A stretch of 64,000 nt of DNA from Nitrospirota bacterium (GTDB taxonomy: Bacteria > Nitrospirota > Thermodesulfovibrionia > Thermodesulfovibrionales > JdFR-86): the NCBI GenBank assembly GCA_963721805.1, contig CAVRJY010000001.1, forward strand, positions 704,001 through 768,000, in the 5' to 3' direction. Made by a program: the position numbers and the translations under genes. The notes beneath the pieces are model-generated. The model had not been told where the DNA came from and made no database searches. It saw only the letters and a program-made list of their open reading frames with translations. Position 1 is the first letter of the stretch. Each line of letters starts with the position of its first letter. Shown here one piece after another: positions 17,480 to 60,017 of this stretch.

Positions 17480-18334
17480 ATGGTCAAGTTCACCGAGCAC
17501 GTGCCGTTTGTCGATATCGCTTACAGCTATGAGGTCGAGAAGGTCCTCTACAGGGGCAAGAGCAAGTTTCAGGACATCATGGTATTTACGAACCCGCAGT
17601 TCGGCAAGATGCTGATCCTCGACGGCGCGGTGCAGATCACCGAGCGCGACGAGTTTTTCTACCACGAGATGATTACCCACCCGCTGATGCACGCCCACCC
17701 GAACCCGAAGCGCGTCGTGGTCATAGGCGGCGGCGACGGCGGCACGGTGCGCGAGGTCCTAAAGCACAAATCGGTCGAGAAGGTCTACTTCGTCGAGATC
17801 GACCCTGAGGTCATACGCGTATCGAGGGAGTTCTTCCCGACCGTGGCAGGAAGCGTAGGCGATCCGCGCGTCGAGATCAAGAACATGGACGGGGCGGAAT
17901 TTATCAAGTCGCTCAACAACGAGATCGACGTCGTGATCGTGGACTCCACCGACCCGATCGGGTTTGCGCGCAGCCTGTTCAGCGAGCAGTTCCTCCGCAC
18001 CCTGCATCGTGCGCTCACGCCTGAGGGGATGTACGTCACGCAGTCCGAGAGCATGCTGATGCACGCCGATATCGTCAGGGAGATACAGGAGACGATAAAG
18101 AAGGTCTTTCCGTTGACGGACCTCTATTCCACCTGCATTGCGACCTATCCGGGCAACTGGTGGACGTTCTCGTGCGGATCGAAGTCTCACGACATGCGCA
18201 CCATGCGCAGACCGTTTGAGGTCGAGACGAAATACTATGACGATGAAATACACGCGCACTCGTTCATGCCGAAGAGGCTTTACGCACGGCTTATGGTCGG
18301 GTGGCATCCGCTGGTAGTTTTCAAAGCGCGCTAA
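17480..18334 (+). CDS. speE: Polyamine aminopropyltransferase (spermidine synthase)
   Basis: LDGAVQITERDEFFYHEM, IGGGDGG, VDSTDP; RBS GGAGG; the stop codon lies inside repeat copy 1. Confidence 0.93.
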   Translation: MVKFTEHVPFVDIAYSYEVEKVLYRGKSKFQDIMVFTNPQFGKMLILDGAVQITERDEFFYHEMITHPLMHAHPNPKRVVVIGGGDGGTVREVLKHKSVEKVYFVEIDPEVIRVSREFFPTVAGSVGDPRVEIKNMDGAEFIKSLNNEIDVVIVDSTDPIGFARSLFSEQFLRTLHRALTPEGMYVTQSESMLMHADIVREIQETIKKVFPLTDLYSTCIATYPGNWWTFSCGSKSHDMRTMRRPFEVETKYYDDEIHAHSFMPKRLYARLMVGWHPLVVFKAR

Positions 18335-18388
18335 ATACGCGTGATACGTCGTCAGGGGGCAGCGCCCCCTCGCTCCTATTCGCGGCGC
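18323..18388 (+). repeat. Hairpin repeat family copy 1 (truncated, shortened apical stem)
   Basis: AAAGCGCGCTAAATACGCGTGATAC is nearly identical to the start of copy 3; it then runs GTCA-[GGGGGC AGC GCCCCC]-TCGCTCCTA like the reverse complement of copy 7. Confidence 0.75.
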
Positions 18389-18405
18389 TAACGCACCACT
18401 CACTT

Positions 18406-18430
18406 AAAAGGGGCCATCCGGCCCCTTTCT
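18406..18430. terminator. Probable bidirectional terminator
   Basis: AAAAGGGGCC-ATCC-GGCCCCTTT between convergent genes. Confidence 0.65.
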
Positions 18431-19139
18431 TATTGTGGAGATTGTGCTGGTTTGTTAATTGGCTCAAAGCGAATTATTTTTGCTTCGGGGTAGAGCTTAC
18501 TTAAAGCCTCGTGAAGTTTGTCGCGGGTTGTTTCCAAAAAAACTACTGTATCGTCAATATGTTCGATTGCATCATCAGTCATTCTGGATAACTTTGTTGC
18601 CACTCTTTCACCAAGAGCGTTCACATATTGTTGTTTTGAGTATTTAACCCCCTGCGTCATTCCAGCATTCTCGATCAGCGGTTGAGCAATCTCTTCATGA
18701 AGTTTGGAGCGTTCATTGAGTATTTTCGCAGCAGTCTGATATTTACTTTCTGCTATTAATAATTGACCGAGATAGTCACGGTATTCAGTTTCCAGCAGAA
18801 AGCTCAGACTGCTAACATCAAACATCCATCGTTCATAATCCATAGGGGAAATGAAGGTTGCATACCAATGAATCTGAGATCATTCGACCTGATCGAATCA
18901 ATAAATTGTGTTTGGATTAGCCTGAGGCCATTCCACTGTTGCATAAGAATAAACATGGCACGATTACCAAAGGCTACTTCATCGGATTGTTTTCTTCTTA
19001 AACGTTCTTGCTCTTCGGAACGTTTCCGTAGTAAGTGTGCTCGCTCCTCGAGTACGAAGGCATACCAAGCACCGCCAAACGCGGCTCCAAATGCGGCTAG
19101 TGCTGTGATTATCGCGGATAAGATTGTCTCAGAAATCAT
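18430..19139 (-). CDS. AT-rich hypothetical protein with N-terminal TM, probably one gene split by a frameshift near 18845
   Basis: ORFs 18804..19163 and 18430..18843 overlap and join if one base in the run at 18845-18848 is removed. Confidence 0.6.
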
Positions 19140-19159
19140 GCTTTGCACAATGCAACACC

Positions 19160-19390
19160 TCATGCTGCCTTGGCGGGCTCGACCATGACCTTTCCGAAGG
19201 ACTGTATGACGAGTTCGTTAATGTCGGCCTTGTCCGAGACACCGAGTATCTCGATGCCCACGACGTTTCCGGCCCCGTCGTAGTCCGCGATGATATCCTC
19301 TGACAACTCGTCGGTATTGGAGATCTCGGTCTCCTTAAACCGCATGTAGATTGCGTCAGCCTCTTTTGAGTAGTGTATCCTCATGCTCAT
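19160..19390 (-). CDS. DUF2283-type protein (putative antitoxin)
   Basis: IHYSKEADAIYMRF...DIIADYDGAGNVVGIEILGVS signature. Confidence 0.85.
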   Translation of the reverse strand: MSMRIHYSKEADAIYMRFKETEISNTDELSEDIIADYDGAGNVVGIEILGVSDKADINELVIQSFGKVMVEPAKAA

Positions 19391-19626
19391 CGCCTCCCTA
19401 GGTACTTCTCGACCTTATCCGTGACATATACAGTTATCAGCCTGTCGCCATCAGCGACGACCCTTACGAGCTTCTGCCCGGCCTTCTTCTGGTAGACAAT
19501 CCTCTTGCCGCTAGGTACTGTGCTGTCCGGCATGGCGAGGACGGATTGGACCAGATCACGCGCGACCTTCCTCTCGTCCATCTGCAAGAGTATGTGGTCA
19601 GTCCATATCCATTGCCGCTCGGCCAT
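19387..19626 (-). CDS. DUF4258-type protein (putative RelE-like toxin)
   Basis: WTDHILLQMDERKV...LVRVVADGDRLITVY; 4-nt overlap with the DUF2283 gene. Confidence 0.8.
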   Translation of the reverse strand: MAERQWIWTDHILLQMDERKVARDLVQSVLAMPDSTVPSGKRIVYQKKAGQKLVRVVADGDRLITVYVTDKVEKYLGRR

Positions 19627-19850
19627 AAACCTGACTATTATCCTACATCAAAGCGGCCTGTTTGTGTAAGACCTCTTTAACTAACCATAGTTAATCAAAA
19701 ACGCACGGATTTTAATTTTTCCTATCAATTTCGGTTTATATATAAACCGTAGGTTATCGCTTTTTTTGTTTCGTTGTGCTTCAATATCGTATGAGTTTGA
19801 TATGGTCATATTTGATGGGCGGGGCAGGGGAGGCGGGAGAGAGTGCCACA

Positions 19851-20012
19851 TGTTCGGATAAGGCCGCAAAAACCGCACTTTTTATCCGAACATCCGAACA
19901 GGGACGATCTCGAAAAAATGATGTTTTCCGGGGAGTTAGCGTTGCTCTTGCCTCAAACATCCGAACACATAAAATAAAACGTGCGCGCGCGGAATGCGTA
20001 ACTATACCTAAG
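19851..20012 (+). repeat. ACATCCGAAC multi-repeat module A (homologous to 59683..59844)
   Basis: ATCCGAACATCCGAACA-54 nt-AAACATCCGAAC..ATAAAATAAAA...GCGCGCGCGG.ATGCGTAACTATA; inverted copy TGTTCGGAT at 19851. Confidence 0.85.
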
Positions 20013-20027
20013 CGCGGACATCAGAAC

Positions 20028-20203
20028 ATGCCGTTGACCTTGTGGGGCGCGGGGGGCGACCTTCTTCCGTGCCCCCCGAAAGCGCGCCCAAATCGTCTTC
20101 AGACAAGGCAGGGCAAGAAGACCGCCCGATGGTGTACTGTGACGTACATAGAGGGCGAGTCTTTGAAGCCCAACGAAGTATCAAGCGATTTGGCGCGCTT
20201 TCA
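20028..20203 (-). repeat. Hairpin repeat family copy 2 (type A linker)
   Basis: ATGCCGTTGACC tail, GGGGGGC...GCCCCCC mini-hairpin, long hairpin GAAAGCGCG...GTGTAC-TGTGAC-GTACAT...CGCGCTTTC. Confidence 0.92.
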
Positions 20204-20233
20204 CTACCTGCCAGTATGGTAAAATCCTAAGTT

Positions 20234-21196
20234 ATGAAATATAAGCCAGTCTCGCTGAAGAAGATTAAAACCTATCCCGTCTCTGCTCGTAAGAGCAAGG
20301 TGCGTGCCGACCTGTTAGCCCGTCCCCACGCCCCCGGCTCTACGTTCCCGGAGTTCTTGGCTACGCTGCCTGACGTGCTGGGCGCGCGTGACCTGAAGGC
20401 GGTGGCAGCCGCCATAGCCAAGGCCCGCGCAGATGGGCGGCCCGTCGTGCTGGGTATGGGCGCGCACCCGATCAAGGTCGGCCTCTCGCCGCTGATCATC
20501 AACCTGATGGAGCTTGGCGTGATAACCGCGCTCGCGACCAACGGGGCCGCGATAGTTCACGACTTCGAGCTCTCATACGCCGGGCATACCTCGGAGGACG
20601 TCGCGGAGGCGCTCGCGGACGGCAGCTTCGGGATGGCGCGCGAGACAGGGGCGCTCCTAAACGCTGCGATCAAGAAGGGCGTCAAGGACGGCCTCGGCAT
20701 CGGCCACGCAGTCGGACGCATGATCGACGAGGGCGGGAAAAAGTTCCCGCACAAGGACCTGAGCATATTCGGCGCGGCATGGAGGCTCGGGCTTCCGGCC
20801 ACGGTGCACGTCGCGGTCGGGACGGACATCATACACATGCACCCGGCCGCGGACGGCGCGGCGATAGGCGAGGGCAGCCACACGGATTTTAAGCTCTTCG
20901 CCGCGGTCGTAGGCGACCTCGAGGGCGGGGTGTACATCAACCTCGGCTCTGCTGTGCTGATGCCGGAGGTTTTTTTGAAGGCGCTCTCGGTTGCGCGCAA
21001 CCTCGGCCATCCGGTGAGGCGGCTTACGACCGTGAACATGGACTTCATCCAGCACTACCGCACGAGAGAGAACGTGCTGAGGCGGCCGACGATGCTCGGC
21101 GGCGCGTCATACGCCCTCACCGGCCACCACGAGATAATGTTCCCGCTGCTTGGGGCGGCGGTCATGGAGGATATAGCCCGTGATTCCAAAGGTTGA
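20234..21196 (+). CDS. Deoxyhypusine-synthase-like conserved protein
   Basis: GMGAHPIKVGLSPLIINLM...ATNGAAIVHDFE, GSAVLMPEVFLK, GHHEIM resemble the DHS-like fold; function uncertain. Confidence 0.6.
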   Translation: MKYKPVSLKKIKTYPVSARKSKVRADLLARPHAPGSTFPEFLATLPDVLGARDLKAVAAAIAKARADGRPVVLGMGAHPIKVGLSPLIINLMELGVITALATNGAAIVHDFELSYAGHTSEDVAEALADGSFGMARETGALLNAAIKKGVKDGLGIGHAVGRMIDEGGKKFPHKDLSIFGAAWRLGLPATVHVAVGTDIIHMHPAADGAAIGEGSHTDFKLFAAVVGDLEGGVYINLGSAVLMPEVFLKALSVARNLGHPVRRLTTVNMDFIQHYRTRENVLRRPTMLGGASYALTGHHEIMFPLLGAAVMEDIARDSKG

Positions 21197-21374
21197 CCAG
21201 GAGACCTGCATCGGCTGCGGCCGCTGCGAGGAGATATGCCCGGCCGTGTTTCACGTCGATGAAGAGCTCGGCAAGTCGCAGGTGATCGACCCGGAGGCCT
21301 GCGAGTACGCCGGCTGCTGCGAGGCCGCCGAGGAGAACTGCCCGGTCTCGGCCATCTCCCTCGTCGAGGAATAA
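21180..21374 (+). CDS. Small ferredoxin
   Basis: CIGCGRCEEICP...CPVSAI. Confidence 0.88.
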   Translation: MIPKVDQETCIGCGRCEEICPAVFHVDEELGKSQVIDPEACEYAGCCEAAEENCPVSAISLVEE

Positions 21375-22111
21375 TGCTCGACTACACCGGCCACATGCGC
21401 CGCGCCCTTGGCGTGCTCGGCCGAAACTACCAGCTCGGGCTGCCGACCGCGATAGCGAGCTTCTGCGTCGCGTTCGCGACGATACCGCTGATGGCCGACA
21501 CCGAGAACCTGACCACTATAGCCTGGGTCTCGTTCATCGGATTAGGCGTGAGCTTCTTCGCGCAGGGCGTGACGATGGCCATGGCGCTTGAGGCGATCCG
21601 CACCGGGAGCACCTCGCTGCGCTCCGGAGGGCAGCACGCGATGCGGCTGCTCGGGCCGCTATTGGGCACGTCGATCTGGATGTCGGCGCTCGTCATCGCC
21701 GGGCTGATGCTGTTTATCGCCCCGGGGCTCATCATCTACTGCATGCTGTTCTTCGCGCTCCCGGCAGTCGCGGTCGAGGGCCTGGGCCCCCATGCCGCGT
21801 TTCGGCGGAGCATCGACATCGTGCGCGGCAACAAGCGCGACTCGCTCATGGTATTTATGTGGATCACCTCGCTGGGGCTGATACTGGGCGGGATCAGCAT
21901 CGTCATCGGCACCATCCCGGTTGCGGGCCAGCTGTTTGCGATCATAATGTCCGCGGCGTTTGCCGGGTTCATGTCCGTGGTGCTCGTCACGGCTTTTTTA
22001 GAACTGGCGACCGCTTCAGCCAAGGGGCCGGCCCCTCCGCCTGACGCCATAGCGTGCGCAGCAGCGTTCGCCCGGTGTGATAAACTGAAATCATGTCGAT
22101 TATCGTCCTGA
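21374..22111 (+). CDS. Hypothetical membrane protein
   Basis: Multi-TM ORF translationally coupled to the ferredoxin; LFIAPGL...AAFRRSIDIVRGN. Confidence 0.7.
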   Translation: MLDYTGHMRRALGVLGRNYQLGLPTAIASFCVAFATIPLMADTENLTTIAWVSFIGLGVSFFAQGVTMAMALEAIRTGSTSLRSGGQHAMRLLGPLLGTSIWMSALVIAGLMLFIAPGLIIYCMLFFALPAVAVEGLGPHAAFRRSIDIVRGNKRDSLMVFMWITSLGLILGGISIVIGTIPVAGQLFAIIMSAAFAGFMSVVLVTAFLELATASAKGPAPPPDAIACAAAFARCDKLKSCRLSS

Positions 22112-22863
22112 CCAACGACGACGGCTTGCACGCCAGCGGGCTCGTGGCCCTGATGGACGAGATGCGCAAGGCCCATGAGATATGCGTCTTCGCGCCCGAC
22201 CGCGAGCGCTCGGCATCGAGCCATTCCTTCACGCTCGACCGCCCGTTGAGGGTCAACCGCATCGAGGAGGGCGTATACAGCATCAGCGGCACCCCCACCG
22301 ACTGCGTAGCCGTAGGGATATCGAAGGTCCTGGGGCGCAGGCCCGCGCTATTGATCTCGGGCATCAACGCCGGGGCGAACCTCGGCGACGACGTGACATA
22401 CTCCGGCACGGTCTCGGCCGCAATGGAGGGCACGATCCTGAACATCCCGTCCATCGCGGTATCGCTCTATACCGAGCCCGGCGAGACCGTGATGCACTTC
22501 GATTCGGCCGCGCGGGTGGCCGCGATGGCGGCCGACTACGTGCTCGAATACTCGCTCCCCTATGACACGCTCCTTAACGTCAACGTCCCGAACCGCCCGT
22601 ACGCTGAGCTTTCGGGCGTGCGCTTCACGCGTCAGAGCAAGCGCATGTACGAGGACTCGATCAAGGAGACGGTCTCGCCGTGGGGCGAGACGTTTTTCTG
22701 GATAGGCGGAGGGCAGCCGGTCTGGGAGCGTGGCGGGGACACAGATATCGCGGCCGTGCGCGCGGGCTTCGTATCGGTGACGCCGCTACATCTGGACCTC
22801 ACGAACCACGGCGCGCTGGAATACCTGAGGCAGCGATGGAAGCCGACGATTACGCCCGGCTGA
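22093..22863 (+). CDS. surE: 5'/3'-nucleotidase SurE
   Basis: LTNDDG, GTPTDCV, SGINAGANLG, YSGTVSAA. Confidence 0.96.
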   Translation: MSIIVLTNDDGLHASGLVALMDEMRKAHEICVFAPDRERSASSHSFTLDRPLRVNRIEEGVYSISGTPTDCVAVGISKVLGRRPALLISGINAGANLGDDVTYSGTVSAAMEGTILNIPSIAVSLYTEPGETVMHFDSAARVAAMAADYVLEYSLPYDTLLNVNVPNRPYAELSGVRFTRQSKRMYEDSIKETVSPWGETFFWIGGGQPVWERGGDTDIAAVRAGFVSVTPLHLDLTNHGALEYLRQRWKPTITPG

Positions 22864-29492: not shown

Positions 29493-29510
29493 GGTTCTGT
29501 CGCTTCGCTG

Positions 29511-29677
29511 GAAAGACGCGCTAAATACGCGTGATACTGCGTCAGTGCTTCAAAGACACGCCCTCGGAGTACGTCTCAGTACACCGTCGGGCGGTCTTCT
29601 CGCCCTTCCTTGTCTGACGCGATTTATCGCGCTTTGGTGATACGCGCAGGGTCAAGCGCGAGCGGTCAACGGCATTG
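29511..29677 (+). repeat. Hairpin repeat family copy 3 (type B linker)
   Basis: GAAAGACGCGCTAAAT...GAGTAC-GTCTCA-GTACAC...ATTTATCGCGCTTT then GCGCGAGCGGTCAACGGCATTG. Confidence 0.92.
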
Positions 29678-29700
29678 GAAAAACTTTATGGTTATAAGGG

Positions 29701-30705
29701 TTAGTTTTTGGGGACAAACGAATACACGACGCCACTATTTGGCAATAACCATTCATTATACTGCATTGAAAAGAAACCTTCACGATGATCCTCAATAACC
29801 TTTTCTGGATGAGAGACCATCGGCTGAAACCTTAATTTCATTTCTTTAGGATATGATATTGTCATATAAAAAGTTTTTGTGGGATGTGCCATTGACCAAT
29901 TTGAAAACTGGCCTGTTTCCATTTTATAGACTGATTTTAATTCCACATACAATCCATTTTCGCTAAAATTACTCAAGGGGAAAATTAGTCCCTTTTGTTC
30001 AATTTCACTGCGCGGAACTTGCTTCTCAGTGCCATTGCATTTAACAACAAATTCATCATCTTTCTTATTCATTGACAATACGGGGTTGTTTTTTACCTTC
30101 ATTTCAACGCTTATAATATCTAAGAACTCTCCTGGATCTGGCTTCCACTTTATAGTATCCTGAATTTTTCCGCCAACCATTTTACAGGCATATGTAAGTC
30201 TATCGCTAATTAAAATACCTGGCGGTTCATCTGACTCTTCCACTACAATCTCGCACTTAACGTTATCTCTATATGGTTCGCTAATATACTTACTTAAGTT
30301 ATCCTGAAAATAATTCAAAAAACTTCCTTCCTTATCTATATCTGAGGTATGAAAATATGCTTTCAAGGTCTTAATCTGAAGATTTGAAAGGGTTTCTTGA
30401 TCCATAGAATTTAAATATTCTTGTTCCAAAACTACATTTTTCAATCTTTCCTCAAAATAATGCTGCCAATCAGGTAATTGCAAAAAGAAAGAAAATATGC
30501 CAGATGTGAAAATCGTGAAACCAAGCAGCTCAAAAAAATTATATATCAGCTTAGATATATCCGATGCTTTTTCAAAATCCGCCGGTTTATTATAAAGAGT
30601 TATTATCGCGATTAATAATCCCATTGATACCAAAAGAGTCGCGGACAAAACACTTAGCTTTCTCAGAATGTGTAAAATCTTCTTTTCTTTCTTTCCAGTT
30701 ATCAC
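29701..30705 (-). CDS. AT-rich hypothetical protein: two N-terminal TM helices plus soluble domain
   Basis: 334-aa ORF filling the AT-rich island; no family recognised. Confidence 0.75.
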   Translation of the reverse strand: MITGKKEKKILHILRKLSVLSATLLVSMGLLIAIITLYNKPADFEKASDISKLIYNFFELLGFTIFTSGIFSFFLQLPDWQHYFEERLKNVVLEQEYLNSMDQETLSNLQIKTLKAYFHTSDIDKEGSFLNYFQDNLSKYISEPYRDNVKCEIVVEESDEPPGILISDRLTYACKMVGGKIQDTIKWKPDPGEFLDIISVEMKVKNNPVLSMNKKDDEFVVKCNGTEKQVPRSEIEQKGLIFPLSNFSENGLYVELKSVYKMETGQFSNWSMAHPTKTFYMTISYPKEMKLRFQPMVSHPEKVIEDHREGFFSMQYNEWLLPNSGVVYSFVPKN

Positions 30706-30812
30706 GAAGAGTTCCGCCTAACAGTGATTTTACGTTGCTGTTATCATAAGTGAACATGCACATTAAATGCAATAAATATTGCAGAAAAAAAAGAACATTA
30801 GCGGCACTTGTG

Positions 30813-30980
30813 ATCAATGCCGTTGACCGCTCGCGCGATTAGCACACAGCACCACCAAAGCGCGATAAATTAGGCTCAGACAAGGAACGGCGAGGACCCC
30901 AACCGGAGGCGTACTGTGTCGTACGTTGAGGATTGGGGCCGCAGCCGTGACGCAGTATCAGGCAATTTAGCGCGGCTTTC
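30813..30980 (-). repeat. Hairpin repeat family copy 4 (type B linker)
   Basis: CAATGCCGTTGACCGCTCGCGC tail, AAAGCGCGATAAATT...GCGTAC-TGTGTC-GTACGT...AATTTAGCGCGGCTTT. Confidence 0.92.
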
Positions 30981-32050
30981 CAATCCGCCCCTCTATCAAG
31001 AGATCAGGCCCGACGCGCCGCACCGTCATATCCCCTACCATGAGCGCGTCTTCGAGTTTGCGGAACGCATCGCCCCCGACGACCGGGAATGAGCGCAGCC
31101 CCGCCGATGATCTTGGGAGCGACGAATATCATCACCCGGTCCACGATGCCCTCCATCAGGGCATGGCCGTTGAGTGTCGCTCCACCCTCGATCAGCACCG
31201 AGTTCATCCCGATAGAGCCAAGCTCCCGAAGCAGCCACTTCAAGTCGAGCGTGCCCTTGTAGCCCAGTATCCTCACCCCGCGCGCCTCGAACGAGCGCGC
31301 CAGAGCACCACCACTCTCCCTCGTAACGATGATCGTATCCGGCGGGGTCTGAAGCACCCGTGCGCTGTCCGCGATGCGAAGTGACGGGTCGATGACCACG
31401 CGCACCGGCTGGTGCGCACCTCGAATGCGCGCGGTGAGTTCCGGGTCGTCGGCCGCTACGGTGCCGATCCCTGTGATGACCGCGTCCACCGAAGAGCGGA
31501 GCCTGTGCACGATCTTGCGCGCCGGTGCCGAGGTGATCCATTTCGACTGGCCCTCGGGTGTGGCGATCTTGCCATCTAGCGTCATCGCGGCCTTCAGGGT
31601 GACGAACGGGAGCCCGGTCGTGATTTGCTTGATATATGCCTCGTTGAGTGCGCGGGCCTTGTCCTCGAGCACGCAGCAGGTCGTCTTGATCCCGGCCGCC
31701 TCGATCTCGGCGATGCCCCGGCCCGAGACCTTCGGGTTTGGGTCCCTCATCGCGACCACCACGCGGGCCACTCCCGAGGCGATGATCGCTTTTGTGCAGG
31801 GCGGGGTGCGCTTCTTGGTGTGGCAGCAGGGCTCCAAAGAGACATAGAGCGTCGCACCACGCGCTTTCTCGCCCGCGCTTTGGAGCACGAGCGCCTCGGC
31901 GTGAGGCGTGCCTGCCCTGCGGTGGTAGTCCTCGGCGATGACCCGCCCGGAGCGCACCAGCACCGCGCCGACCATCGGGTTCGGGCTCGTGCGGCCCCGG
32001 CCGCGCGCAGCGAGCGCCAGGGCGCGTTTCATGTATAAAACATCGTCCAT
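30967..32050 (-). CDS. ribD: Riboflavin deaminase/reductase RibD, apparent frameshift near 31100
   Basis: TSPNPMVGA, HAE, LEPCCH...TPPC, TLDGKIA, LIEGG. Removing one base at about 31100 restores APKIIGGLRSFPVVGG...VGPDLLIEGRIGKPR*. Confidence 0.92.
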
Positions 32051-32140
32051 CCGGTAATATACCACAATCGCCCCGGCAGGCCATCAGGGTGCGGGCTGTG
32101 GTATAATTAGTGATTAATTTCACCAACCAGGAGGCTTAAT

Positions 32141-34297: not shown

Positions 34298-34319
34298 TTT
34301 TCTCCCCGTTACCTTCTCT

Positions 34320-34486
34320 AAAGCCGCGCGAAATCGCTTGATACTGCGTCATCAGTCGAAAATCGCCCTCGGAGTACATCCCAGTACACCTGCGGGACGA
34401 TTTTCTCCTTCTTCCTTGTCTCAAGACGATTTCTCGCGCTTTAATGTTGCCCCTGCCTGATCGCGCGAGCGGTCAACGGCATTGAT
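34320..34486 (+). repeat. Hairpin repeat family copy 5 (type B linker)
   Basis: AAAGCCGCGCGAAATCG...GAGTAC-ATCCCA-GTACAC...CGATTTCTCGCGCTTT then ATCGCGCGAGCGGTCAACGGCATTGAT. Confidence 0.92.
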
Positions 34487-34543
34487 ATAGTTCTATCGCT
34501 TTGTTAGTTTCGAATTATGAGATGCAGTTATAGTTTGCTGCCA

Positions 34544-35704
34544 TTATGGTTGTTTGCTTTTACTGAGATAAGTCTTAAGTATAAAACCGGGTGTTCTTGG
34601 AATTAACCATTTAATAAAATCCTTGTAGGTGGTTCTGAGGGCAGGGACTTCCAAATATTTATCTAGGACTCCCTCATTGCTAGAAAGAAGTTTAATGAAG
34701 ATCGCAGGGAAAAGATGCATGAGTCTAGTTAACAATAAGGAATATTTTAAGTTTTCACCAAAGTCACGTTGACAGCGCAATTCATATGCTTGTCGTAGAT
34801 TCATTTTCTTGTTTAACTTTAGTTTTTCAAATATAATTTCTACAGCAATCTGTCCTGACCTTATTGCATAAGCAATACCCTCCCCATAAAATGGATCCAC
34901 AAACCCAGCCGAATCACCAACCAGTATCATTCTATTTGTCGCGAGTGTTCTCTTAATCCCTCCAGAAGGTATCACATGACCGTGCAAACGATATTTTTCA
35001 CGGAATCCATTTTCTTTTAGGAAAGATTCCATTGATGATAGAGGGTTAGATAAATATTTTGCAAAGCCTCCGATGCCAACATTGAAACAGTTTTTATGTG
35101 GAAATATCCACCCATAACCAACGCCGGCAACACCGAAATGTATGTCGATAGAATTATGTATATAACTGTCTATGCGATCATTACTTGCCTCTATCTCAGT
35201 TACGATGCAGATGCCGAATTCAGCCCTTGTATCTTTTTTGCGTATCAAACGCTTAAATTTACCTTGTGCGCCTTCAGCGATGATAACAAATCGAGTTCTA
35301 TAGCTATCATTTGTTGTAAAGACAGAAATATCATCGATATGCTCTTGAATGTCAATTACCTGTTCCCCCAGCTTAACTTCAATTTCAGTTTCTTTGGCTT
35401 TGGCAAGTAAGTACGCATCAAAATTACTTCTATTAACAAGAACAGCAATTCGATATTCTTTTTGTCTTTCAATTGAATTGTTCTTGAAATGAACTCTAGC
35501 CCCATAGATCTCTCTTTCGATAAGATGCTGGGGAATTTCGAAATCGAGATATGACATAGCATGTTCTGACAAAGCACCGCCACATGGTTTATAACGAGGG
35601 AAATCAGCTTTTTCCAGTAGAAGTGTTTTAAGACCCTTTTGACCAGCAATTCGCCCTGCGGATGATCCCGCTGGTCCACCACCTATTATAATGAGATCAT
35701 ACAT
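34544..35704 (-). CDS. Geranylgeranyl reductase family FAD oxidoreductase (AT-rich)
   Basis: IIGGGPAGS, PRYKPCGG, GYGWIFP, LVGDSAGFVDPFYGEGI. Confidence 0.88.
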   Translation of the reverse strand: MYDLIIIGGGPAGSSAGRIAGQKGLKTLLLEKADFPRYKPCGGALSEHAMSYLDFEIPQHLIEREIYGARVHFKNNSIERQKEYRIAVLVNRSNFDAYLLAKAKETEIEVKLGEQVIDIQEHIDDISVFTTNDSYRTRFVIIAEGAQGKFKRLIRKKDTRAEFGICIVTEIEASNDRIDSYIHNSIDIHFGVAGVGYGWIFPHKNCFNVGIGGFAKYLSNPLSSMESFLKENGFREKYRLHGHVIPSGGIKRTLATNRMILVGDSAGFVDPFYGEGIAYAIRSGQIAVEIIFEKLKLNKKMNLRQAYELRCQRDFGENLKYSLLLTRLMHLFPAIFIKLLSSNEGVLDKYLEVPALRTTYKDFIKWLIPRTPGFILKTYLSKSKQP

Positions 35705-35706
35705 TG

Positions 35707-36753
35707 TTATTTTAAGAAAGCTTCCAATACAGCTATTGATAACGGAGATAGAAATGAAAGGCCAAAGCCAGATAGGATTCCCAGGTCAAAAGGGTATGCC
35801 CGCATATCGTTTAATTTTGAATTGTAAAGATGCTCAAACAAATAAATTTCAATTGCTTTTTTAATGTCTAAATTTTCAGAAGATACGAATTCCTTTAACA
35901 TTTTTTCAAGCTTATTATGATAGTTTATTCTTACCTCTTTTTTCTTGGCATCTATGTATTGTTTCAGTCTAAGTATGGGAGCTATGAAACCTATTACCAT
36001 TGTAATGATGAATAATAACGATGACAGAATAATCATTAGATTTAGAGAGTCGGCTTTATTGCCAAGTTTAGAGAATATCTCAAAAGCTAAAGGAAAAACT
36101 AACGCACCAGATGAAAAATATAGTGATATTTTGACGGAGAATGCTCCAAATGTTGCCAAGCCACCGTATCTGTCCGGATGATGCGGTTCAAAAATCAGAT
36201 CATCGCAACAAATATTATTCATCATTGTTATCAAAACAAATATCCCATGAAAGCCAATTGATGATATAAAAAAGAGAAGAAAAAATGAAATGCTTCCCCA
36301 TAGTTCAATTGCCAATGGCGCATTTCCGTAATAAGAATGTACCACGAGGAAAGATAAGGCTAAGCCTAAGGGATAACCAACGATCTGATACTTATTCGAT
36401 TGGATTCGTTTAATTTCTCTAAGAAAATGGTTCTCCCATTTGCCATGAGCGAAAACTTCCACATATTTGTGGAAGAAATCAATGATATATTCAAAAGCGC
36501 TTTGTATCAATAATGGGGCAATAGCTAACCATAATAAAGCAATATGCATACGCCATGTAAATATTTCTTCATTATATATGAATTGAAGCAAGTACCCAAT
36601 AGATATGATTGGAATATAAAACATAAACACTGATGCACATATTTTTGATCGAAAAAGTTTACTCAAAAAATATTGCCATCTAATAATCCAAAGCGTAGCT
36701 CGTGAAGCCGCTTCTTTTTCAACCTTTGACCATTCTTTTCTCCCGCCGATCAT
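35707..36753 (-). CDS. AT-rich hypothetical polytopic membrane protein
   Basis: 348 aa, multiple TM segments, HPDRYGGL motif; stop lies 2 nt before the reductase start. Confidence 0.72.
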   Translation of the reverse strand: MIGGRKEWSKVEKEAASRATLWIIRWQYFLSKLFRSKICASVFMFYIPIISIGYLLQFIYNEEIFTWRMHIALLWLAIAPLLIQSAFEYIIDFFHKYVEVFAHGKWENHFLREIKRIQSNKYQIVGYPLGLALSFLVVHSYYGNAPLAIELWGSISFFLLFFISSIGFHGIFVLITMMNNICCDDLIFEPHHPDRYGGLATFGAFSVKISLYFSSGALVFPLAFEIFSKLGNKADSLNLMIILSSLLFIITMVIGFIAPILRLKQYIDAKKKEVRINYHNKLEKMLKEFVSSENLDIKKAIEIYLFEHLYNSKLNDMRAYPFDLGILSGFGLSFLSPLSIAVLEAFLK

Positions 36754-37000
36754 GTGTTAGCCTTTCTCAATTGTTTAAGTATTAAAACGAAGTAATCATT
36801 AAGGTTTCAATAGACTATCTGATATTAACTATTTGAGTCAACAGTTCTACTATTATTGCAGCGCCTCATAGAAAGCTAGTAAGCTGTCAAGGAGTTATGT
36901 AGATATCGACCAAATATAATGTTGTAGCCCTTCAGAATAGTAATCGCGAATAAGTGAACGATGTAATTAGAAGCGAAGCGGCTCTGAATCCCGCTGGCCT

Positions 37001-54269: not shown

Positions 54270-54297
54270 ATGACCGGCGTCATATGACGCGGATCAT
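54270..54297. promoter_or_regulatory. Tandem Crp/Fnr-type operators in a divergent promoter
   Basis: ATGA-CCGGCG-TCAT directly followed by ATGA-CGCGGA-TCAT; -10 elements TATACT (54320, +) and TATGAT (54247..54242, -). Confidence 0.7.
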
Positions 54298-54361
54298 TGC
54301 CCGGTAAGGCTTTCTAGGCTATACTGAGTTCAAGGATCAAATTAAAAGGAGGGCATATCAA

Positions 54362-54769: not shown

Positions 54770-54813
54770 ATTGCTCTCCACGCACACCTTAGTGTGCGCG
54801 GAGCCTCAAAAAG

Positions 54814-55497
54814 CTAATCGACTCCGGCCGCGGCGCGGAGGCCGGCGAGGTCGCGGATCGTGACCTTCCCGGCCTTCTCGGTCACGAGGCCGCTTTTTTT
54901 AAACTTGCTCATCGTGCGGATCGAGGTCTCGACCGTCGTGCCGACCATCTCGGCGATGTCCTGCTTCGTGAGCTTCATATCTATCGCCACGCCATCGGGG
55001 GTCTTGTGCCCTGACTGCTCCGAGAGCTTTATCAGCAGGGCCGCGATGCGCGCCCCTACCTTCTCGAGCGCGATGTTGCGCGTGGATTCGTGAAACTCCT
55101 TGATCCTGTCGCCGAGGCTCTGCATGATCCCGAGCATCACGACCGGGAAGCGGTCGAGGACCTTCAGCAGGTTTACGCGCGAGCACCTGAGAACGCGCGT
55201 GGGCTCGATCGCGACGGCGTTTGCGGGGTAGGGGAAGCCCCTCACCACCGCGACCCCGCCGAAGAACTGCTTGGGCTGGATGAGTTCGAGGATGATCTCC
55301 TTGCCGTCCTGGGAGAGCTTCGTGATCTTGACCTTGCCCGAAAGAACGACATAGAGCCAGTCCGAGGGGTCGCCCTCTGAAAATATCGTCTTGCGCTTGG
55401 GGTAGTCGTGCTCGGTAAAGAACGGCGAGATTTCTTTAATCTCTGCTTTAGTGAGCATTGAAAACAGCGGGAGTTCGTCTAGGTTTATCATCAGCAT
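54814..55497 (-). CDS. Crp/Fnr-family transcriptional regulator (HcpR/DNR-like)
   Basis: cNMP-like domain IFSEGD...SGKVKI, HTH LTKQDIAEMVGTTVETSIRTMS; no FNR Cys cluster. Confidence 0.92.
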   Translation of the reverse strand: MLMINLDELPLFSMLTKAEIKEISPFFTEHDYPKRKTIFSEGDPSDWLYVVLSGKVKITKLSQDGKEIILELIQPKQFFGGVAVVRGFPYPANAVAIEPTRVLRCSRVNLLKVLDRFPVVMLGIMQSLGDRIKEFHESTRNIALEKVGARIAALLIKLSEQSGHKTPDGVAIDMKLTKQDIAEMVGTTVETSIRTMSKFKKSGLVTEKAGKVTIRDLAGLRAAAGVD

Positions 55498-55626
55498 ACC
55501 TTACCGTAGCATGGCCTAAATTTCAACCTCTGGTGTGAAAGCGCTCCAAATCGCTTGATACTGCGTTGGGCATCGGAGACTCGCCCTCTATGTACGTCAC
55601 AGTACACCATCGGGCGGTCTTCTTGC

Positions 55627-56721
55627 AGTGGATTGTCAAGCCAAGTGCAACAGGCGCGCATTTGCCGCAACCTCGGCGGGTGCCCTGTAGTCCAGCGTTT
55701 TTCTTGGTCTGTTGTTAATCTCATCAACGACGCGATCCAGCTGCTCCTGCGTTACTGTGTTGAAGTCGATCCCCTTCGGAAAGTACTGCCGCAGCAGCCC
55801 GTTGAGGTTTTCGTTCTGGCCGCGCTGCCATGAGCAATAGGGGTCGGCGAAGTATACGTCGATCCCCATCATGTATTTTAAGTCCCTGTAGCATGCAAAC
55901 TCGCTGCCCCTGTCCACGGTCATGGTCATACGCATGCCCTGCCGCAGGCCTCCCAGCGCCGATACGGCGGCCTCCCTCAACGCCTCCGAGCCGGGCCTCG
56001 GCATCTTCCTCGATATAAGGTAGAGGCTCTTGCGCTCGTTAAACGTTGCGATGCACGTTTTCCCGTCGAACCCGTAGACGGTATCCGCCTCCCAATCCCC
56101 GAAGCGTCCCTTCCGGACCACGATCTCGGGGCGCTGCCTGATGCTCAACGCCCCATTGAACCGGCCCCTGGTCTCAGGCCCCCGGGCTTTTCTGTAGCTC
56201 CTTCCCTTACGCCTCAGCATGCGATGCATCGAGCCCCCCATCGCCCTGTCCTGCCGTATCCATCTGTATAGCGTGGCAAAGGATATCCGCATCTCTGTGC
56301 TATGTGGATGGTCAAGCTTAAGGCGGCCCGACACCTGCTCCGGCGACCAACGCCTGCAAAGTCCCGCCATCGCATAGCCGATCAGGCCGTCCGGCCAGCG
56401 CTTCAGGCGTCTGCTCGCAAAATGCCTTCGGCGGACATAGAGCACGGTTGCGGCGTGCGCGCCATAGAAAGACTTCTTCGTGTTGCGCCGCAGCTCCCGG
56501 CTCACGCTCGATGGCGAGCGGCCAAGCTGGCGCCCGATCTCACGTATGCTCACCCCCGCATAACGCATCCTTGCGATGCCCTCCCGCTCATCAATGCTAA
56601 AATGACTGTAGCCCATCGTCCCTCCCTCTCTGTTTCGTCTGGTTGGTACTTGACTCTAACAGAACAGGATGACGATGGGCTTTTTCTTTCACAGGTGTTG
56701 CACTTCACATTACAATCCGCG
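55627..56721 (-). mobile_element. IS30-family insertion sequence
   Basis: Imperfect IRs GTGGATTGTCAAGCCAAGTGCAACA / GCGGATTGTAATGTGAAGTGCAACA, 2-bp GC target duplication, transposase inside. Confidence 0.92.
55636..56616 (-). CDS. IS30-family transposase
   Basis: LGRSPSSVSRELRRN, WSPEQVSGR, GDWEADT, DRGSEF, PYCSWQRGQNENLNGLLRQYFPKG. Confidence 0.95.
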   Translation of the reverse strand: MGYSHFSIDEREGIARMRYAGVSIREIGRQLGRSPSSVSRELRRNTKKSFYGAHAATVLYVRRRHFASRRLKRWPDGLIGYAMAGLCRRWSPEQVSGRLKLDHPHSTEMRISFATLYRWIRQDRAMGGSMHRMLRRKGRSYRKARGPETRGRFNGALSIRQRPEIVVRKGRFGDWEADTVYGFDGKTCIATFNERKSLYLISRKMPRPGSEALREAAVSALGGLRQGMRMTMTVDRGSEFACYRDLKYMMGIDVYFADPYCSWQRGQNENLNGLLRQYFPKGIDFNTVTQEQLDRVVDEINNRPRKTLDYRAPAEVAANARLLHLA

Positions 56722-56891
56722 GCCCTGCCTTGTCTGAAGCCGATTTGGCCGCGCTTTCGGGGGGCACGGAAGAAGGTCGCCCCCCGCGCCCCCAAGGAAA
56801 GGTATTGATTTGGAGATAAATGCGCAAAATCAAATAAACTGTTACCATTATTCGATTTCAATTGTGCAATATGAATGATATAATTGTGTGC

Positions 56892-58259
56892 ATGAAACTA
56901 ATTGCAGGTAGTATTAATGGGGAGCATTTAGATGAACTTCTTGAAAATTCAATCGCCAAAACTACTAATGTAAAAGCAGCCGTTGCCTATGCTAACTCCT
57001 CACCTAAACTATTCGATAAATGTTGGGACAATAGCATTCGTATCACTTTTTGGTGTCGATATGACGAGTCGATTCCAGTTTCCACACAGATTCTAAAAAA
57101 ATTCCTAGACCGTCGTTCCCCCAATTATGTATGCAAACTTGTTCGAGATATTTTTCATGCGAAAATCATATGGTGGGAAGGTTACGGTGTATATATCGGC
57201 TCAGCCAATCTAACTTCAAATGCATGGGGCGGCAACATTGAAGCAGGACTGTTTTTGACAGAGGAGGAAATTGTTTCTAAAGAGCTTGAAGAGGGTCTAA
57301 ATAAATTTTTCGAGGAGCTAGATAATTATTCCAATCCGCTCACAACCGAGGTTTATAATTACTTAAAAGAAATTGAGACAAAACTACGTATTGAAATAGA
57401 CCCCAAAAAAGCTGAAATGCGGAAACAGTTTGAAGAAAATAATCCGATTCCGTCCTTAAGGCCCTTAATCCTTATGAGTAAAAGGACTGCTGTCGAAAAG
57501 AAGAAAGAGGCATTCTTAAAAGAATGGAATGCTACTCTACAGATTATGCGCGATATCGCTGATAGGGTGTCGGATGATGTGTATAGGCCTTCATGGATAA
57601 CTGAAGAAGTGCCAAAGGGAGTTCAAACCGATCAGTTCCTACATGCATATTATTATAGTCGTGTAATGGACGGCAATAAAGCTAGACATCATGAATTCTA
57701 TGAGAAAAACCAAGTGAATCCTGAAGATGCATTAATCCAAGCAATGTCTTGGTGGAATAAATTACCTAAGGCACCACATAACGAGGACGTAACAATATAT
57801 GAATGGGCAATATACAATAAAGTTCATTTAGGTGAAACCCGCATTCTTGCCTTAACATCTGAAGAATTTGTTGGGGTTTGCGAAAGAATCCACGCATTGC
57901 GTGAGCACTCTAAACGATTAGAGTATAAGTCTATTGGTTTAATCAGGCCACCAGATGGTATAGATGCCGATGCTCGCATCAGATCACTTGGCGAGTGGCT
58001 GTATCAGCAAAAAACAAAAGAGGGGAAGACAGTTTTGGAGAAGTTGCATTATTTGTTATATGGAGGAAATAGTGATGATATTCCTGAAAGACTATGGGAA
58101 TCGTACAATTCCGACAAATGGGATATACCTCATATTGGGATTAGTACTCTTGGAGAAATAATTGGATGGGCGATGCCCGACATTTTTCCACCGAGGAATG
58201 GGCGTACAAGCAAGGCATTAACTGCTCTTGGATACAAAGTAACACTTCATACAGAATAA
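56892..58259 (+). CDS. AT-rich phospholipase-D-like (HKD) nuclease-domain protein, putative defence/restriction enzyme
   Basis: N-terminal AVAY...FHAKIIWW...YIGSANLT is the PLD/BfiI-type HxK-GSxN motif; start at 56892 or up to 30 nt earlier. Confidence 0.75.
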   Translation: MKLIAGSINGEHLDELLENSIAKTTNVKAAVAYANSSPKLFDKCWDNSIRITFWCRYDESIPVSTQILKKFLDRRSPNYVCKLVRDIFHAKIIWWEGYGVYIGSANLTSNAWGGNIEAGLFLTEEEIVSKELEEGLNKFFEELDNYSNPLTTEVYNYLKEIETKLRIEIDPKKAEMRKQFEENNPIPSLRPLILMSKRTAVEKKKEAFLKEWNATLQIMRDIADRVSDDVYRPSWITEEVPKGVQTDQFLHAYYYSRVMDGNKARHHEFYEKNQVNPEDALIQAMSWWNKLPKAPHNEDVTIYEWAIYNKVHLGETRILALTSEEFVGVCERIHALREHSKRLEYKSIGLIRPPDGIDADARIRSLGEWLYQQKTKEGKTVLEKLHYLLYGGNSDDIPERLWESYNSDKWDIPHIGISTLGEIIGWAMPDIFPPRNGRTSKALTALGYKVTLHTE

Positions 58260-58293
58260 CGGATTTCAAGCCCCATACCACAACACCCCGGAA

Positions 58294-59493
58294 TGTAAAA
58301 GTCCAGTGCTCTCCGGACAGTTTTCCATCTCATCGGTCGCACTGATCAGGCGGCCTCCTCCTCAGCTTTCTGTCTTAGCTTTTTGCCCAGCTCGATAGTT
58401 TCTATTGGCCGTCTGCCCATGTTGCGATAGCCCTTGTGAGGGCGCTCGTTGTTGTAGTGGTGCAGCCACCGGTCGAGGTCATACTGCAGCTCATCGAGCG
58501 ATGCGTAGAACCGGTACCTGAACGTCTCCGAGAAGAACTCGTCCAGGATGGTGCGATTAAACCGCTCCACGAATCCGTTTGTCCTCGGTGTCGCCACCTT
58601 CGTCCTTCGATGCGCGATGTCGTGAAGCGCCAGAAACAGCTCGTACGGATGCCGCAGCAGCTTGCCGCAGTACTCCGAGCCGTTGTCCGTCAGGACATGC
58701 TGGACCCTGATGCCATGGTCCTCGTAAAACGGCAGCACGCGGTCGTAGAGCACGTCGGCCGCCGTCTCGGGCCTCTTCGACGTGTACAGCTTGCCGAAGG
58801 CATAAGAGCCGTACGTGTCCACCACGGCCTGCAGATACACGGTCCCGATGCCCTTGAGCTTGCCCACCGTGAAGGTGTCCTGGCTGAGCAGATAGCCCGG
58901 ATATGCGCTCTCCACATGCCTTTCCCTGAAGCACGGATTGGCCCGCTCGATGAGCTTGACCTGCTCCTCCGTTAGCTCGATCTCCTTGCCGTTAGCCTCC
59001 TGCTCAAGCCGGAGGATGCGCTTGGCCTTCGACTCCAGCCCCTCGCGAACCTGGATGCGATACACAGTTGAGGGACGCACCAATATGCCCTCCAGAAGCA
59101 GGTGCTCGAAGATGCGCTGCTTCCCCCACCGGGGGTGAGCAAGGCTCATCTCGATCACTCGCTTGCGGGCCTCCTCAGGCGTCTTGTGGGGACAGCTACG
59201 CGCTATCGGCGGAAGGTCCGCGAGCCCCGCAAACCCCTGCTCCTGAAACGCCCGCTTGTACTCGTAAAACTGGCTGCGGCTCACCCCCCGGCGGCGACAG
59301 GCCTCCGACACGTTCCTGAGCCTCTCGGCCAGCTGAAGCATTGAAAGCCTCCCTTGTGATATCTTTTCTTTGGCAGTCATGCCCTTCCTCCTTCGGTCTG
59401 TGTTTTGTGGTGAAACATTCTAACCGATGGAAGGGCTGGCTGCCGCCTGCTTTTTCCAGCCTGATACTGTCCGGTAAGAGCGTAACCTTTACA
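58294..59493 (-). mobile_element. IS481-family insertion sequence
   Basis: Ends TGTAAAAGT...CCGGACAGT / TGTAAAGGT...CCGGACAGT, 8-bp duplication CCCCGGAA at 58286 and 59494. Confidence 0.92.
58346..59380 (-). CDS. IS481-family transposase
   Basis: NVSEACRRRGVSRSQFY, QDTF, LTDNGSEY, PRTNGFVERFNRT, YNNERPH. Confidence 0.94.
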   Translation of the reverse strand: MTAKEKISQGRLSMLQLAERLRNVSEACRRRGVSRSQFYEYKRAFQEQGFAGLADLPPIARSCPHKTPEEARKRVIEMSLAHPRWGKQRIFEHLLLEGILVRPSTVYRIQVREGLESKAKRILRLEQEANGKEIELTEEQVKLIERANPCFRERHVESAYPGYLLSQDTFTVGKLKGIGTVYLQAVVDTYGSYAFGKLYTSKRPETAADVLYDRVLPFYEDHGIRVQHVLTDNGSEYCGKLLRHPYELFLALHDIAHRRTKVATPRTNGFVERFNRTILDEFFSETFRYRFYASLDELQYDLDRWLHHYNNERPHKGYRNMGRRPIETIELGKKLRQKAEEEAA

Positions 59494-59497
59494 CCCC

Positions 59498-59553
59498 GGA
59501 ACTGGTCAATAGGAACTGGTTCCTAGGAACCAGTTCCCAGGAATCGGTTCCCA
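59498..59553. repeat. Four tandem 14-bp imperfect palindromes
   Basis: GGAACTGGTCAATA / GGAACTGGTTCCTA / GGAACCAGTTCCCA / GGAATCGGTTCCCA. Confidence 0.85.
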
Positions 59554-59682
59554 TGGACGCGTTCCGCCTTTTGGTTCTATCATCGCGCATGAAATATATA
59601 AAGGCTATATCAACTAGCAAGGTGGGCGGGAATAACAACTTTGCAGTCTATGCAAATTATGATTCTGTGCGCCCTCCTAAAT

Positions 59683-59844
59683 CATCAGAACAAAACCCCG
59701 AAAAACCGGCTGAAACATCCGAACATCCGAACAAACGCGGAGCGGCAAAAACTAACGAATTCACGGTGTTGCGCCCGGTTTCATGCAAAACATCCGAACG
59801 CTATAAAATAAAAGGCGCGCGCGCGGTATGCGTAACTATAGTAA
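59683..59844 (+). repeat. ACATCCGAAC multi-repeat module B (homologous to 19851..20012)
   Basis: Same motif order and same 54-nt spacer length as module A, with a divergent spacer sequence. Confidence 0.85.
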
Positions 59845-60017
59845 GCCGTTGACCTCGCGGGGCGCGGGGGGCGACCTTCTTCCGTGCCCCCCGAAAGCGC
59901 GATAAATCGTGTCAGACTAGGAGCGGCGAGCAGACCGCCCGATGGTGTACTGTGACGTACATAGAGGGCGAGGATGCGAGCCGTGACAACGTATCACGCG
60001 AGTTTAGCGCGCTTTCA
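59845..60017 (-). repeat. Hairpin repeat family copy 7 (type A linker)
   Basis: GCCGTTGACC tail, GGGGCGCGGGGGGCGACCTTCTTCCGTGCCCCCCGAAAGCGCG identical to copy 2, apex GTGTACTGTGACGTACAT. Confidence 0.92.

Follow-up and report, generated by a model that had tools for sequence, protein, structure and literature searches.

In mobile insertion cassettes (MICs), such as IS231-MIC and the Tn3-type MICs, and in integron mobilisation units, inverted non-coding copies flank passenger genes, with no transposase inside. The dif (Xer) site is a 28-bp sequence in which XerC and XerD arms surround a 6-bp spacer. Correia/NEMIS and ERIC elements reach hundreds of copies in a small genome, lie beside gene ends, and form a long hairpin able to act in transcripts. 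Here, we describe a ~180-nt non-coding, structured repeat in the genome of a Nitrospirota bacterium (assembly GCA_963721805.1; 2.78 Mb, 9 contigs, 94% complete) that invites comparison with each of these. We analyzed a 64,000-nt stretch of its contig C1 (CAVRJY010000001.1; C1:704001-768000, hereafter the window), in which seven copies of the repeat lie at the edges of AT-rich islets. We term the end of the repeat that begins with GCCGTTGACC the head and the opposite end the tail, and we define a unit as a heads-facing pair of copies less than 8 kb apart, together with the DNA it encloses.

We propose, with a probability of roughly 0.45, that this repeat, structured and polar, spreads by itself and caps core genes, and that facing heads constitute slots in which small foreign islets insert and are probably exchanged. 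The repeat would spread as a discrete unit of ~178 nt, with its tail sitting tight against the end or the start of a core gene. The gap between two facing heads would then serve as a slot in which small horizontally acquired islets sit and probably turn over. We infer that the head terminus is where cargo comes in or is swapped; this could be the work of a site-specific enzyme acting in trans, or of homologous recombination among the many arms following DNA uptake. At ~50 heads, an additional non-coding segment, module X, adjoins the head, preferentially on the side of a core-gene start, and may have a role in the expression of that gene.

The geometry appears closest to that of the dif (pdif) modules of Acinetobacter plasmids and of cassettes bounded by miniature inverted-repeat transposable elements (MITEs), and where the tests that define those systems were run, the repeat gave other results. 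As far as the available accounts describe them, dif modules similarly consist of accessory modules, including toxin-antitoxin genes, between short alternating inverted sites; they have no recombinase of their own, and certain insertion sequences (ISs) target their sites. In contrast, the boundary here is a 180-nt structured repeat and, it appears, not a 28-bp Xer site (the unlikeness to dif was judged by eye), it occupies ~64 dispersed chromosomal places, and cargo is found only in head-to-head intervals, the other intervals being core genome. MITE-bounded composites and MICs also carry two inverted non-coding copies around passenger genes, whereas here we found no target duplications, arms unrelated in subtype, no parent IS with matching ends among the three compared, and a single repeat family that brackets dozens of cargos in one genome.

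Other families of repeats and cassettes offer partial likenesses. Repetitive extragenic palindromic (REP) sequences, BIMEs, and REPINs are, in the account given in PMC3390384, likewise abundant intergenic hairpin repeats, often in inverted pairs, without target duplications and targeted by ISs. They measure 20-60 nt and, by that account, pair at 60-70 bp, whereas the present repeat measures ~178 nt and pairs at 0.5-8 kb (median 1642 nt). The same source describes Pseudomonas REPs as markers of old core DNA and acquired regions as REP deserts; here, the repeat edges acquired DNA. No REP-associated tyrosine transposase (RAYT) is present, and the only Y1 transposase is that of a six-copy IS200-like element. 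Integron cassette arrays also have folded, structure-conserved sites bordering small, promoter-poor cassettes with toxin-antitoxin, acetyltransferase, and orphan genes, and one unit is like a short array with its sites in direct order. They differ in that here no IntI scores above the cut-off, the sites are inverted, the 64 units are dispersed, the motif GTTGACC departs from the GTTRRRY core, and cargo joins 55 nt from the hairpin base. Correia/NEMIS and ERIC elements resemble the repeat in having many structured copies next to gene ends, but those carry terminal inverted repeats and target duplications and show no polarity to foreign DNA, while this one has a single special end and a strong link with low-GC islets. 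Finally, compared with IS200/IS605-type (PATE-like) elements, the arms here are inverted and not direct, no TnpB was found, and the TnpA belongs to an unrelated IS. Full-text literature searches, covering main texts without supplements, returned no description of such a system.

Polarity and pairing of the repeat across the genome

We identified copies in the window by two methods, a covariance model (CM) run over the whole window with filters off and an nhmmer profile, and conducted a genome census with an nhmmer profile built from 56 full copies. The census yielded 233 profile matches in 2.78 Mb, and the window, with 7 copies in its 64 kb, differs little from the genome average of 5.4. Contig C5 (97 kb) stands at about three times the genome density, with 24 BLAST matches to the repeat and ~8 cargo units in regular alternation.

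The two ends of the repeat face different DNA. In 126 of 142 copies, GC content was lower on the head flank than on the tail flank (Wilcoxon p 5e-21), with 300-nt flanks averaging 0.50 on the head side and 0.59 on the tail side against 0.60 for the genome. Almost half of the head-side flanks (48%) fell below 50% GC, and a value of ~0.51 was reached already within 20-40 nt of the head terminus. Pairing followed the same polarity. Between heads-facing neighbors (n=71; 59 of them less than 5 kb apart, median 1642 nt), the DNA mostly has a GC content of 35-52%, whereas tails-facing neighbors (n=69) lie a median of 8.7 kb apart and enclose DNA of 60-65% GC. Among adjacent pairs less than 5 kb apart, 59 were heads-facing vs. 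20 tails-facing (p 1e-5). The repeats alternate in orientation around modules along the chromosome, and 64 heads-facing units, 0.5-8 kb in size, enclose 123,881 nt, or 4.5% of the genome.

To relate the repeat to foreign DNA, we examined small low-GC islets, counted those with an inward head no more than 400 nt from an edge, and repeated the count over 200 random placements. An inward head was found at an edge of 52 of the 86 islets, and at both edges of 20; random placement gave a mean of 5.5 and a maximum of 13. An inward tail was found at none of the 86. An earlier interpretation of the window, made from the DNA sequence without database searches (the sequence-only reading), had placed the copies at the edges of foreign islands, and the islet count supports this for the genome as a whole. 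The remaining low-GC DNA lies mostly in a few large islands on contig 2 with phage-type integrases.

The opposite end of the repeat is tied to core genes. In unpaired full-length copies (n=53), the median distance to a core-like ORF is 10 nt (interquartile range, IQR, 1-32) for the tail and 122 nt (IQR 71-433) for the head. Over all copies, 123 tails follow a stop codon, at a median distance of 10 nt, and 85 precede a start codon, at a median of 33 nt. It is the tail that caps core genes; the head faces the open intergenic side.

This placement also suits a different explanation, in which the repeats are boundary caps kept by selection: a mobile element would insert or survive at core-gene ends and act there as a terminator, leader, or insulator, while foreign DNA lands anywhere by ordinary means and persists where two caps shield its neighbors. 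In a variant of this explanation, foreign DNA is there first and caps come to its edges later. The head would have no role in integration. Solo copies already show the polar spacing just described, tails lie close to stops and starts, and in the 85 start-side cases the core gene is therefore transcribed through or from the repeat. The conserved fold with G-U pairs on one strand (see below), as for an RNA or single-strand function, the position of module X on the gene-start side, and the lack of recombination footprints and of an identified enzyme also agree with it. However, the GC change is sharp at the head terminus, with no native spacer left, and since only a small share of intergenic regions carry the repeat, the roughly tenfold excess of islets at heads (52 of 86 vs. 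5.5) is hard to obtain by survival alone. Headless cores in two other genera lack any such association, internal heads separate cassettes in one unit, and no terminator-like site was predicted in the two copies scanned. We consider boundary caps, with both forms taken together, the main rival: a doubtful explanation that nevertheless deserves a substantial minority of the weight.

Anatomy and fold of the repeat

Alignment of the window copies divides the repeat into a ~55-nt head, beginning with GCCGTTGACC, and a ~130-nt core that runs from AAAGCGCG to CGCGCTTT. The head occurs in two types: in type A, a GC-rich hairpin follows GCCGTTGACC, and in type B, a plain stretch. An alignment of 35 diverse copies predicted a long imperfect hairpin of 29 pairs, 11 of which show compensatory changes, with G-U pairs on the head-to-tail strand. 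These compensatory changes and G-U pairs indicate that selection acts on the fold of a single strand, be it RNA or single-stranded DNA.

Among the 25 youngest copies (at least 92% identical), both ends are sharp and common to all, A(T/A)GCCGTTGACC and GCGCTTTC, ~178 nt apart. Judging by these ends, the amplifying unit is the single ~178-nt repeat and not the pair. In the 105 heads without module X, conservation reaches 10 nt further out (TYYAATYAAW) and is zero beyond position -11, which defines a conserved 20-nt head terminus, TYYAATYAAW GCCGTTGACC. The repeat had no match in Rfam at gathering thresholds, and the terminator scan of two copies predicted no terminator-like site. We also looked for a sigma-70 promoter in the head: visual inspection revealed none, and scans of two copies gave only weak, non-conserved matches.

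Four islets in the window

In the window, the CM and nhmmer recovered the same set of seven copies that had been listed from the sequence and no further credible copy; the next CM matches were antisense echoes and one match with an E-value of 0.59. Considering 500-nt segments, GC content falls below 50% only at 18501-20000, 29501-31000, 34501-37000, and 56501-58500, and all four stretches begin at a repeat head, in agreement with the claim that composition turns AT-rich at the cargo-facing end. The 300-nt flanks of the window copies have a GC content of 0.34-0.47 on the head side and 0.53-0.63 on the tail side. More broadly, the idea that the repeats edge foreign, partly defence-like islets with a fixed polarity held up, and the 64 units extend it to a genome-wide system. 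The only Rfam matches in the window were a fluoride riboswitch (12473-12537, minus strand, 58.6 bits) and a tRNA gene (16060-16132, plus strand).

The first islet begins at a degenerate copy. In copy 1 (18318-18428, minus strand), a 44-nt tail fragment (18318-18361) is combined with a substituted centre that carries two GC hairpins; nhmmer detected the fragment with an E-value of 2e-4 and the CM scored 18318-18485 with an E-value of 0.1. Its location had been read correctly, but it is this tail fragment with a variant centre and not a full copy. The TAA stop of a spermidine-synthase-like ORF (16895-18334) falls inside the copy 1 tail (18320-18334), so that the repeat supplies the end of this reading frame. 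The cargo of islet 1 (18430-19679, GC 0.40-0.52) includes a 137-aa ORF (18430-18843, minus strand) with a sub-threshold HNOB match only. It is followed by a copy of module X (19680-20023, plus strand), a non-coding segment of ~350 nt with ACATCCGAAC iterons that is joined to the head of copy 2 (20024-20207, plus strand). Copy 2 is full length with a type A head (the GC-rich hairpin), and its tail lies 27 nt upstream of the start of a 320-aa gene at 20234.

Islet 2 (29680-30812, GC 0.34-0.43) lies between two full-length copies with type B heads. The tail of copy 3 (29507-29679, minus strand) lies ~15 nt past the stop of a GGDEF gene (29492), and that of copy 4 (30813-30984, plus strand) ~20 nt from the stop of ribD (31004-32065, minus strand). 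The single ORF between them (334 aa, 29701-30705, minus strand) had no match in Pfam, NCBIfam, or PADLOC, and a diverged paralogue of it is found in another unit, C1:669326-672145. Islet 3 (34487-36960, GC 0.35-0.37) is bordered on one side by copy 5 (34315-34486, minus strand), which is full length, has a type B head, and is without a partner copy; its tail lies ~18 nt past the ffh stop (34297). This islet encodes a FAD-dependent oxidoreductase (34544-35704, minus strand) and a 348-aa orphan (35707-36753, minus strand), and its far edge adjoins a phzF-like gene, with no repeat there.

In the fourth islet, copy 6 is split by an IS30-like element (55638-56721, minus strand; 326-aa HTH_38 transposase at 55636-56616) into a tail half (55534-55637, minus strand), which points towards the start of a crp-like gene (54814-55497, minus strand), and a type A head half (56722-56809, minus strand). 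The cargo (56810-59493) comprises a PLD-family nuclease-like gene (56862-58259, plus strand), with weak DrmC/ZacB-like PADLOC matches, and an IS481-like element (~58301-59493; transposase 58346-59380, minus strand). A variant of module X follows (59494-59838, plus strand), in which GGAACnnGTTCC palindromes precede the ACATCCGAAC iterons, and is joined to the head of copy 7 (59839-60021, plus strand). Copy 7 is full length, with a type A head, and its tail lies ~45 nt upstream of the start of a response-regulator diguanylate cyclase gene (60066). The PLD-like gene is the only defence-library match in the window, and a weak one. The sequence-only reading had found no integrase, RAYT, or repeat-specific transposase in the window, and this remains the case, although the IS30-like and IS481-like transposase genes are present; neither of these is linked to the ends of the repeat.

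Units lack the footprints of transposition

Inverted arms around unrelated passengers are the anatomy of composite transposons and MICs, and the units could accordingly be non-autonomous elements of this kind, in which arm, cargo, and arm move as a whole with the tails outermost and a transposase, whether absent, lost, or unrecognised, acts in trans. The sharp ends of the repeat and the existence of 64 units of 0.5-8 kb agree with such elements. However, in the outer flanks of 58 units we found no duplication, the longest shared word matching that of shuffled controls, with duplications of 2-4 nt beyond the reach of this test and hence possible. A flanking direct repeat of at least 11 nt was found at only 3 of 220 single copies, one of them 16 nt long.

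The arms, too, give no sign of joint movement. Core identity was 0.766 within units and 0.759 between units (55 pairs, permutation p 0.21), and many units mix head types, so the matching of subtypes that had been noted for pairs in the window is not general in the genome. In addition, tails lie ~10 nt from core genes on both sides, which would demand very precise targeting; apart from insertion sequences, no cargo is common to the units; and none of the other species representatives was found to carry the head form, so that low-GC cargo cannot have arrived already bracketed from a donor. Composite transposons therefore seem to us improbable. We also considered that facing heads integrate into a circular target. 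This predicts duplications at the inner cargo ends, and none were seen in 35 units, so we rejected it.

The sequence-only reading had left a choice between landing pads and the ends of non-autonomous cargo elements. Landing pads fit better, and cargo-element ends less well, because there are no target duplications and the arms are no more alike than random copies, and also because solo copies are already polar, cargo-less head-to-head dimers exist, and the youngest copies were amplified singly. Such dimers occur at seven places, with 8-99 nt between the copies.

The dimers bring to mind site-specific recombination, in which facing heads would form a site for the housekeeping XerC and XerD or another tyrosine recombinase. 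XerC and XerD are present, the sites alternate in orientation around modules, and in empty dimers the facing heads form inverted 12-nt arms, GGTCAACGGCAT / ATGCCGTTGACC, with a short spacer. In addition, an IS targets the repeat (see below), much as some ISs target pdif sites according to the account in PMC10132070. Against this, two inverted arms occur only in the empty dimers, where the spacer varies from 8 to 99 nt, while cargo edges carry a single arm; no second inverted arm was found in the three window heads that were read. Positions beyond -11 carry no information in the 105 heads, and the head is unlike the dif site by eye, a comparison that did not extend to the chromosome's own dif. 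On balance, we think Xer-type modules very improbable.

Cargo of the units

We next characterized the content of the units. The 57 cargos hold 116 distinct ORFs of at least 85 aa, about half of which have no Pfam match. By its domain content, the cargo is accessory and defensive, made up of restriction-modification, toxin-antitoxin, abortive-infection, and orphan genes. Restriction-modification is represented by an MmeI-like enzyme, methyltransferase-Mrr fusions, and a type II restriction enzyme, and toxin-antitoxin by three MNT/HepT pairs as well as ParE/Phd, MazF, and Gp49-HTH pairs. Other domains include Abi_C, KAP NTPase, HEPN, TIR-like, PD-T4-6-like kinase, PLD nuclease, and HNH, and GNAT acetyltransferases and SRAP are found as well. 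The 57 cargos have no recombinase family in common and, insertion sequences aside, none of them is found in more than one unit. In the unit C1:1055590-1059644, three to four internal head segments, in the orientation of the left arm, lie between MazF, MNT/HepT, and ParE cassettes; this is the sole clear array-like unit, and it looks as if it had been filled serially.

Module X and other small modules beside heads

Module X has 55 genomic copies, of which 50 are joined to a head. In repeats with module X, the tail adjoins a gene start in 34 cases and a stop in 14, whereas in those without it the corresponding numbers are 51 and 109 (odds ratio 5.2, p 2e-6); both copies in the window precede core-gene starts (the genes at 20234 and 60066). 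Cargo genes show no bias in orientation relative to module X (30 vs. 28), and we therefore rejected the possibility that it is a cargo promoter. The small "ORFs" within it look spurious. Judging by its position, module X probably serves the downstream core gene, restoring its expression after it has been cut off from upstream DNA.

Two further motifs accompany some heads. Three tandem GGAACnnGTTCC palindromes lie at 59494-59560, directly beside the IS481-like element, and similar stretches are found in the units C1:80765-84574, C1:669326-672145, C1:960881-964629, and C2:280313-287990. These palindromes may be an IS481-like target or a further protein-binding module. A GC-rich motif of ~25 nt, GAGYGGCCCAGCCGCTGCC-like, lies just inside some left heads (e.g., C9:10386, C1:960875, C5:54884) and may be a small second module at the end opposite module X.

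Insertion sequences and the search for an enzyme

Five of the seven genomic copies of the IS30-like element lie inside the repeat, at the same position and in the same orientation, between GGTCTTCTCGC and CCTGCCTTGTCTGA (55638-56721 in the window, C1:387236-388375, C1:649288-650427, C2:397043-398179, and C2:367096-368212). The repeat thus contains a hot spot for this element. The IS481-like element has seven of its ten copies inside units, and the 0.6-kb IS200-like element has six identical copies, all on the cargo side of repeats. Two of the latter (C1:42213-42814 and C4:146413-147020) are found at the same module X position, just after ...GTGCGTTTTTGAT.

We then searched the genome for an enzyme that could act on the repeat. 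The six IS200-like copies are the only Y1 transposases (PF01797) in the genome, and their end hairpins do not resemble the repeat; in three same-family genomes with the core (G002, G003, and G006; 92-99% complete), no member of the Y1 family was found. The IS200-like TnpA was therefore rejected as a mobiliser. The genome encodes seven tyrosine recombinases, namely XerD, XerC, and five of island type, none of which passes the NCBIfam cut-off for an integron integrase (best 126 bits vs. 265). A single serine recombinase is located in a large island, and no reverse transcriptase, IS110-type, or TnpB-type genes were found. These absences rest on an assembly that is 94% complete, in which absence is not proof. 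A parent IS with matching ends was likewise not found: the head terminus differs from the ends of the IS30-like, IS200-like, and IS481-like elements, in a search that was not exhaustive for other families.

Relatives and metagenomes

BLASTN of the repeat returned no match in 40 relatives of other genera. The CM, however, found related cores in five genomes (G002, G003, G006, G013, and G057) from four other genera, three within the same family and one outside it; G001, G004, and G005 gave no match. The cores fetched from G002 (17 copies) and G003 (20 copies) are without the GCCGTTGACC head, and their head-side and tail-side GC contents are 0.641 vs. 0.612 and 0.557 vs. 0.562, respectively. Because headless cores in these two genera lack a low-GC head side, the head appears to be the part of the repeat that is associated with cargo. 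A scan for the head plus core-start pattern over species genomes, from which the genome of the window itself was possibly left out, returned no genome with more than one match; the 27 single matches were scattered, and ~6 were estimated to arise by chance.

In a comparison of orthologous loci, the neighbors of speE, ffh, and ribD differed in all relatives fetched, with no conserved gene order. With the GGDEF protein as query, the best match in a metagenome scan had 54% identity, and the CM detected no repeat in the first 41 of the 80 metagenome GGDEF loci, the other 39 lying outside this search. Two freshwater-sediment sequencing runs, X1 and X2, contain small shares of the window (0.08 and 0.06), and no RNA run was listed among those that contain it. 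Contig pieces from run X1 are identical to the window, at low depth. Two X2 sediment contigs join position 18428 to 20033/20034 with 14-15 other letters between, skipping islet 1; this junction could be an empty head-to-head site or a paralogous copy in another organism, and we do not count it as evidence.

Proposed slots, caps, and gene capture

Several observations weigh against facing heads as slots. The polarity could come from the placement of the repeat beside core genes, cargo merely surviving between caps. Not all heads and islets follow the pattern: 44 of 149 heads have no partner and a flank whose GC is normal, another 33 are paired with flanks of at least 50% GC, and 34 of the 86 small low-GC islets lack an inward head. 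Units in which internal heads separate several cassettes are uncommon, true orphan heads numbering ~8 among 186. For module X, it is the position that suggests a promoter role, a sigma-70-like match being found in one copy and not in the consensus. We found no enzyme tied to the repeat in the genome, and no insertion, excision, or exchange event was seen, the relatives reached being too distant for an empty-site comparison.

The slot interpretation can be carried one step further. The head terminus could be the attachment point of a chromosomal gene-capture system, in which the spreading repeat would provide dozens of dispersed docking ends and a trans-acting enzyme or host recombination on folded single-stranded DNA would insert and swap defence and toxin-antitoxin cassettes there, and such a system would be a dispersed counterpart of the integron, without an integrase gene or an array. 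This joint claim is speculative, and we would sooner doubt than endorse it.

Even if the repeats are only caps or insulators, their tight polar placement matters, and the repeat becomes a candidate regulatory element: a 180-nt hairpin lies no more than some tens of bases from the start of ~85 core genes, which makes the repeat part of their transcripts. If the slots are real integration sites, they would add to integron arrays and integrase-borne islands a third mode of organisation for small acquired genes, with many dispersed, insulated sites marked by one self-spreading structured repeat. The repeat would then provide a handle for finding defence and toxin-antitoxin genes in uncultured lineages, and its terminus a defined 20-nt sequence with which to seek the responsible enzyme.

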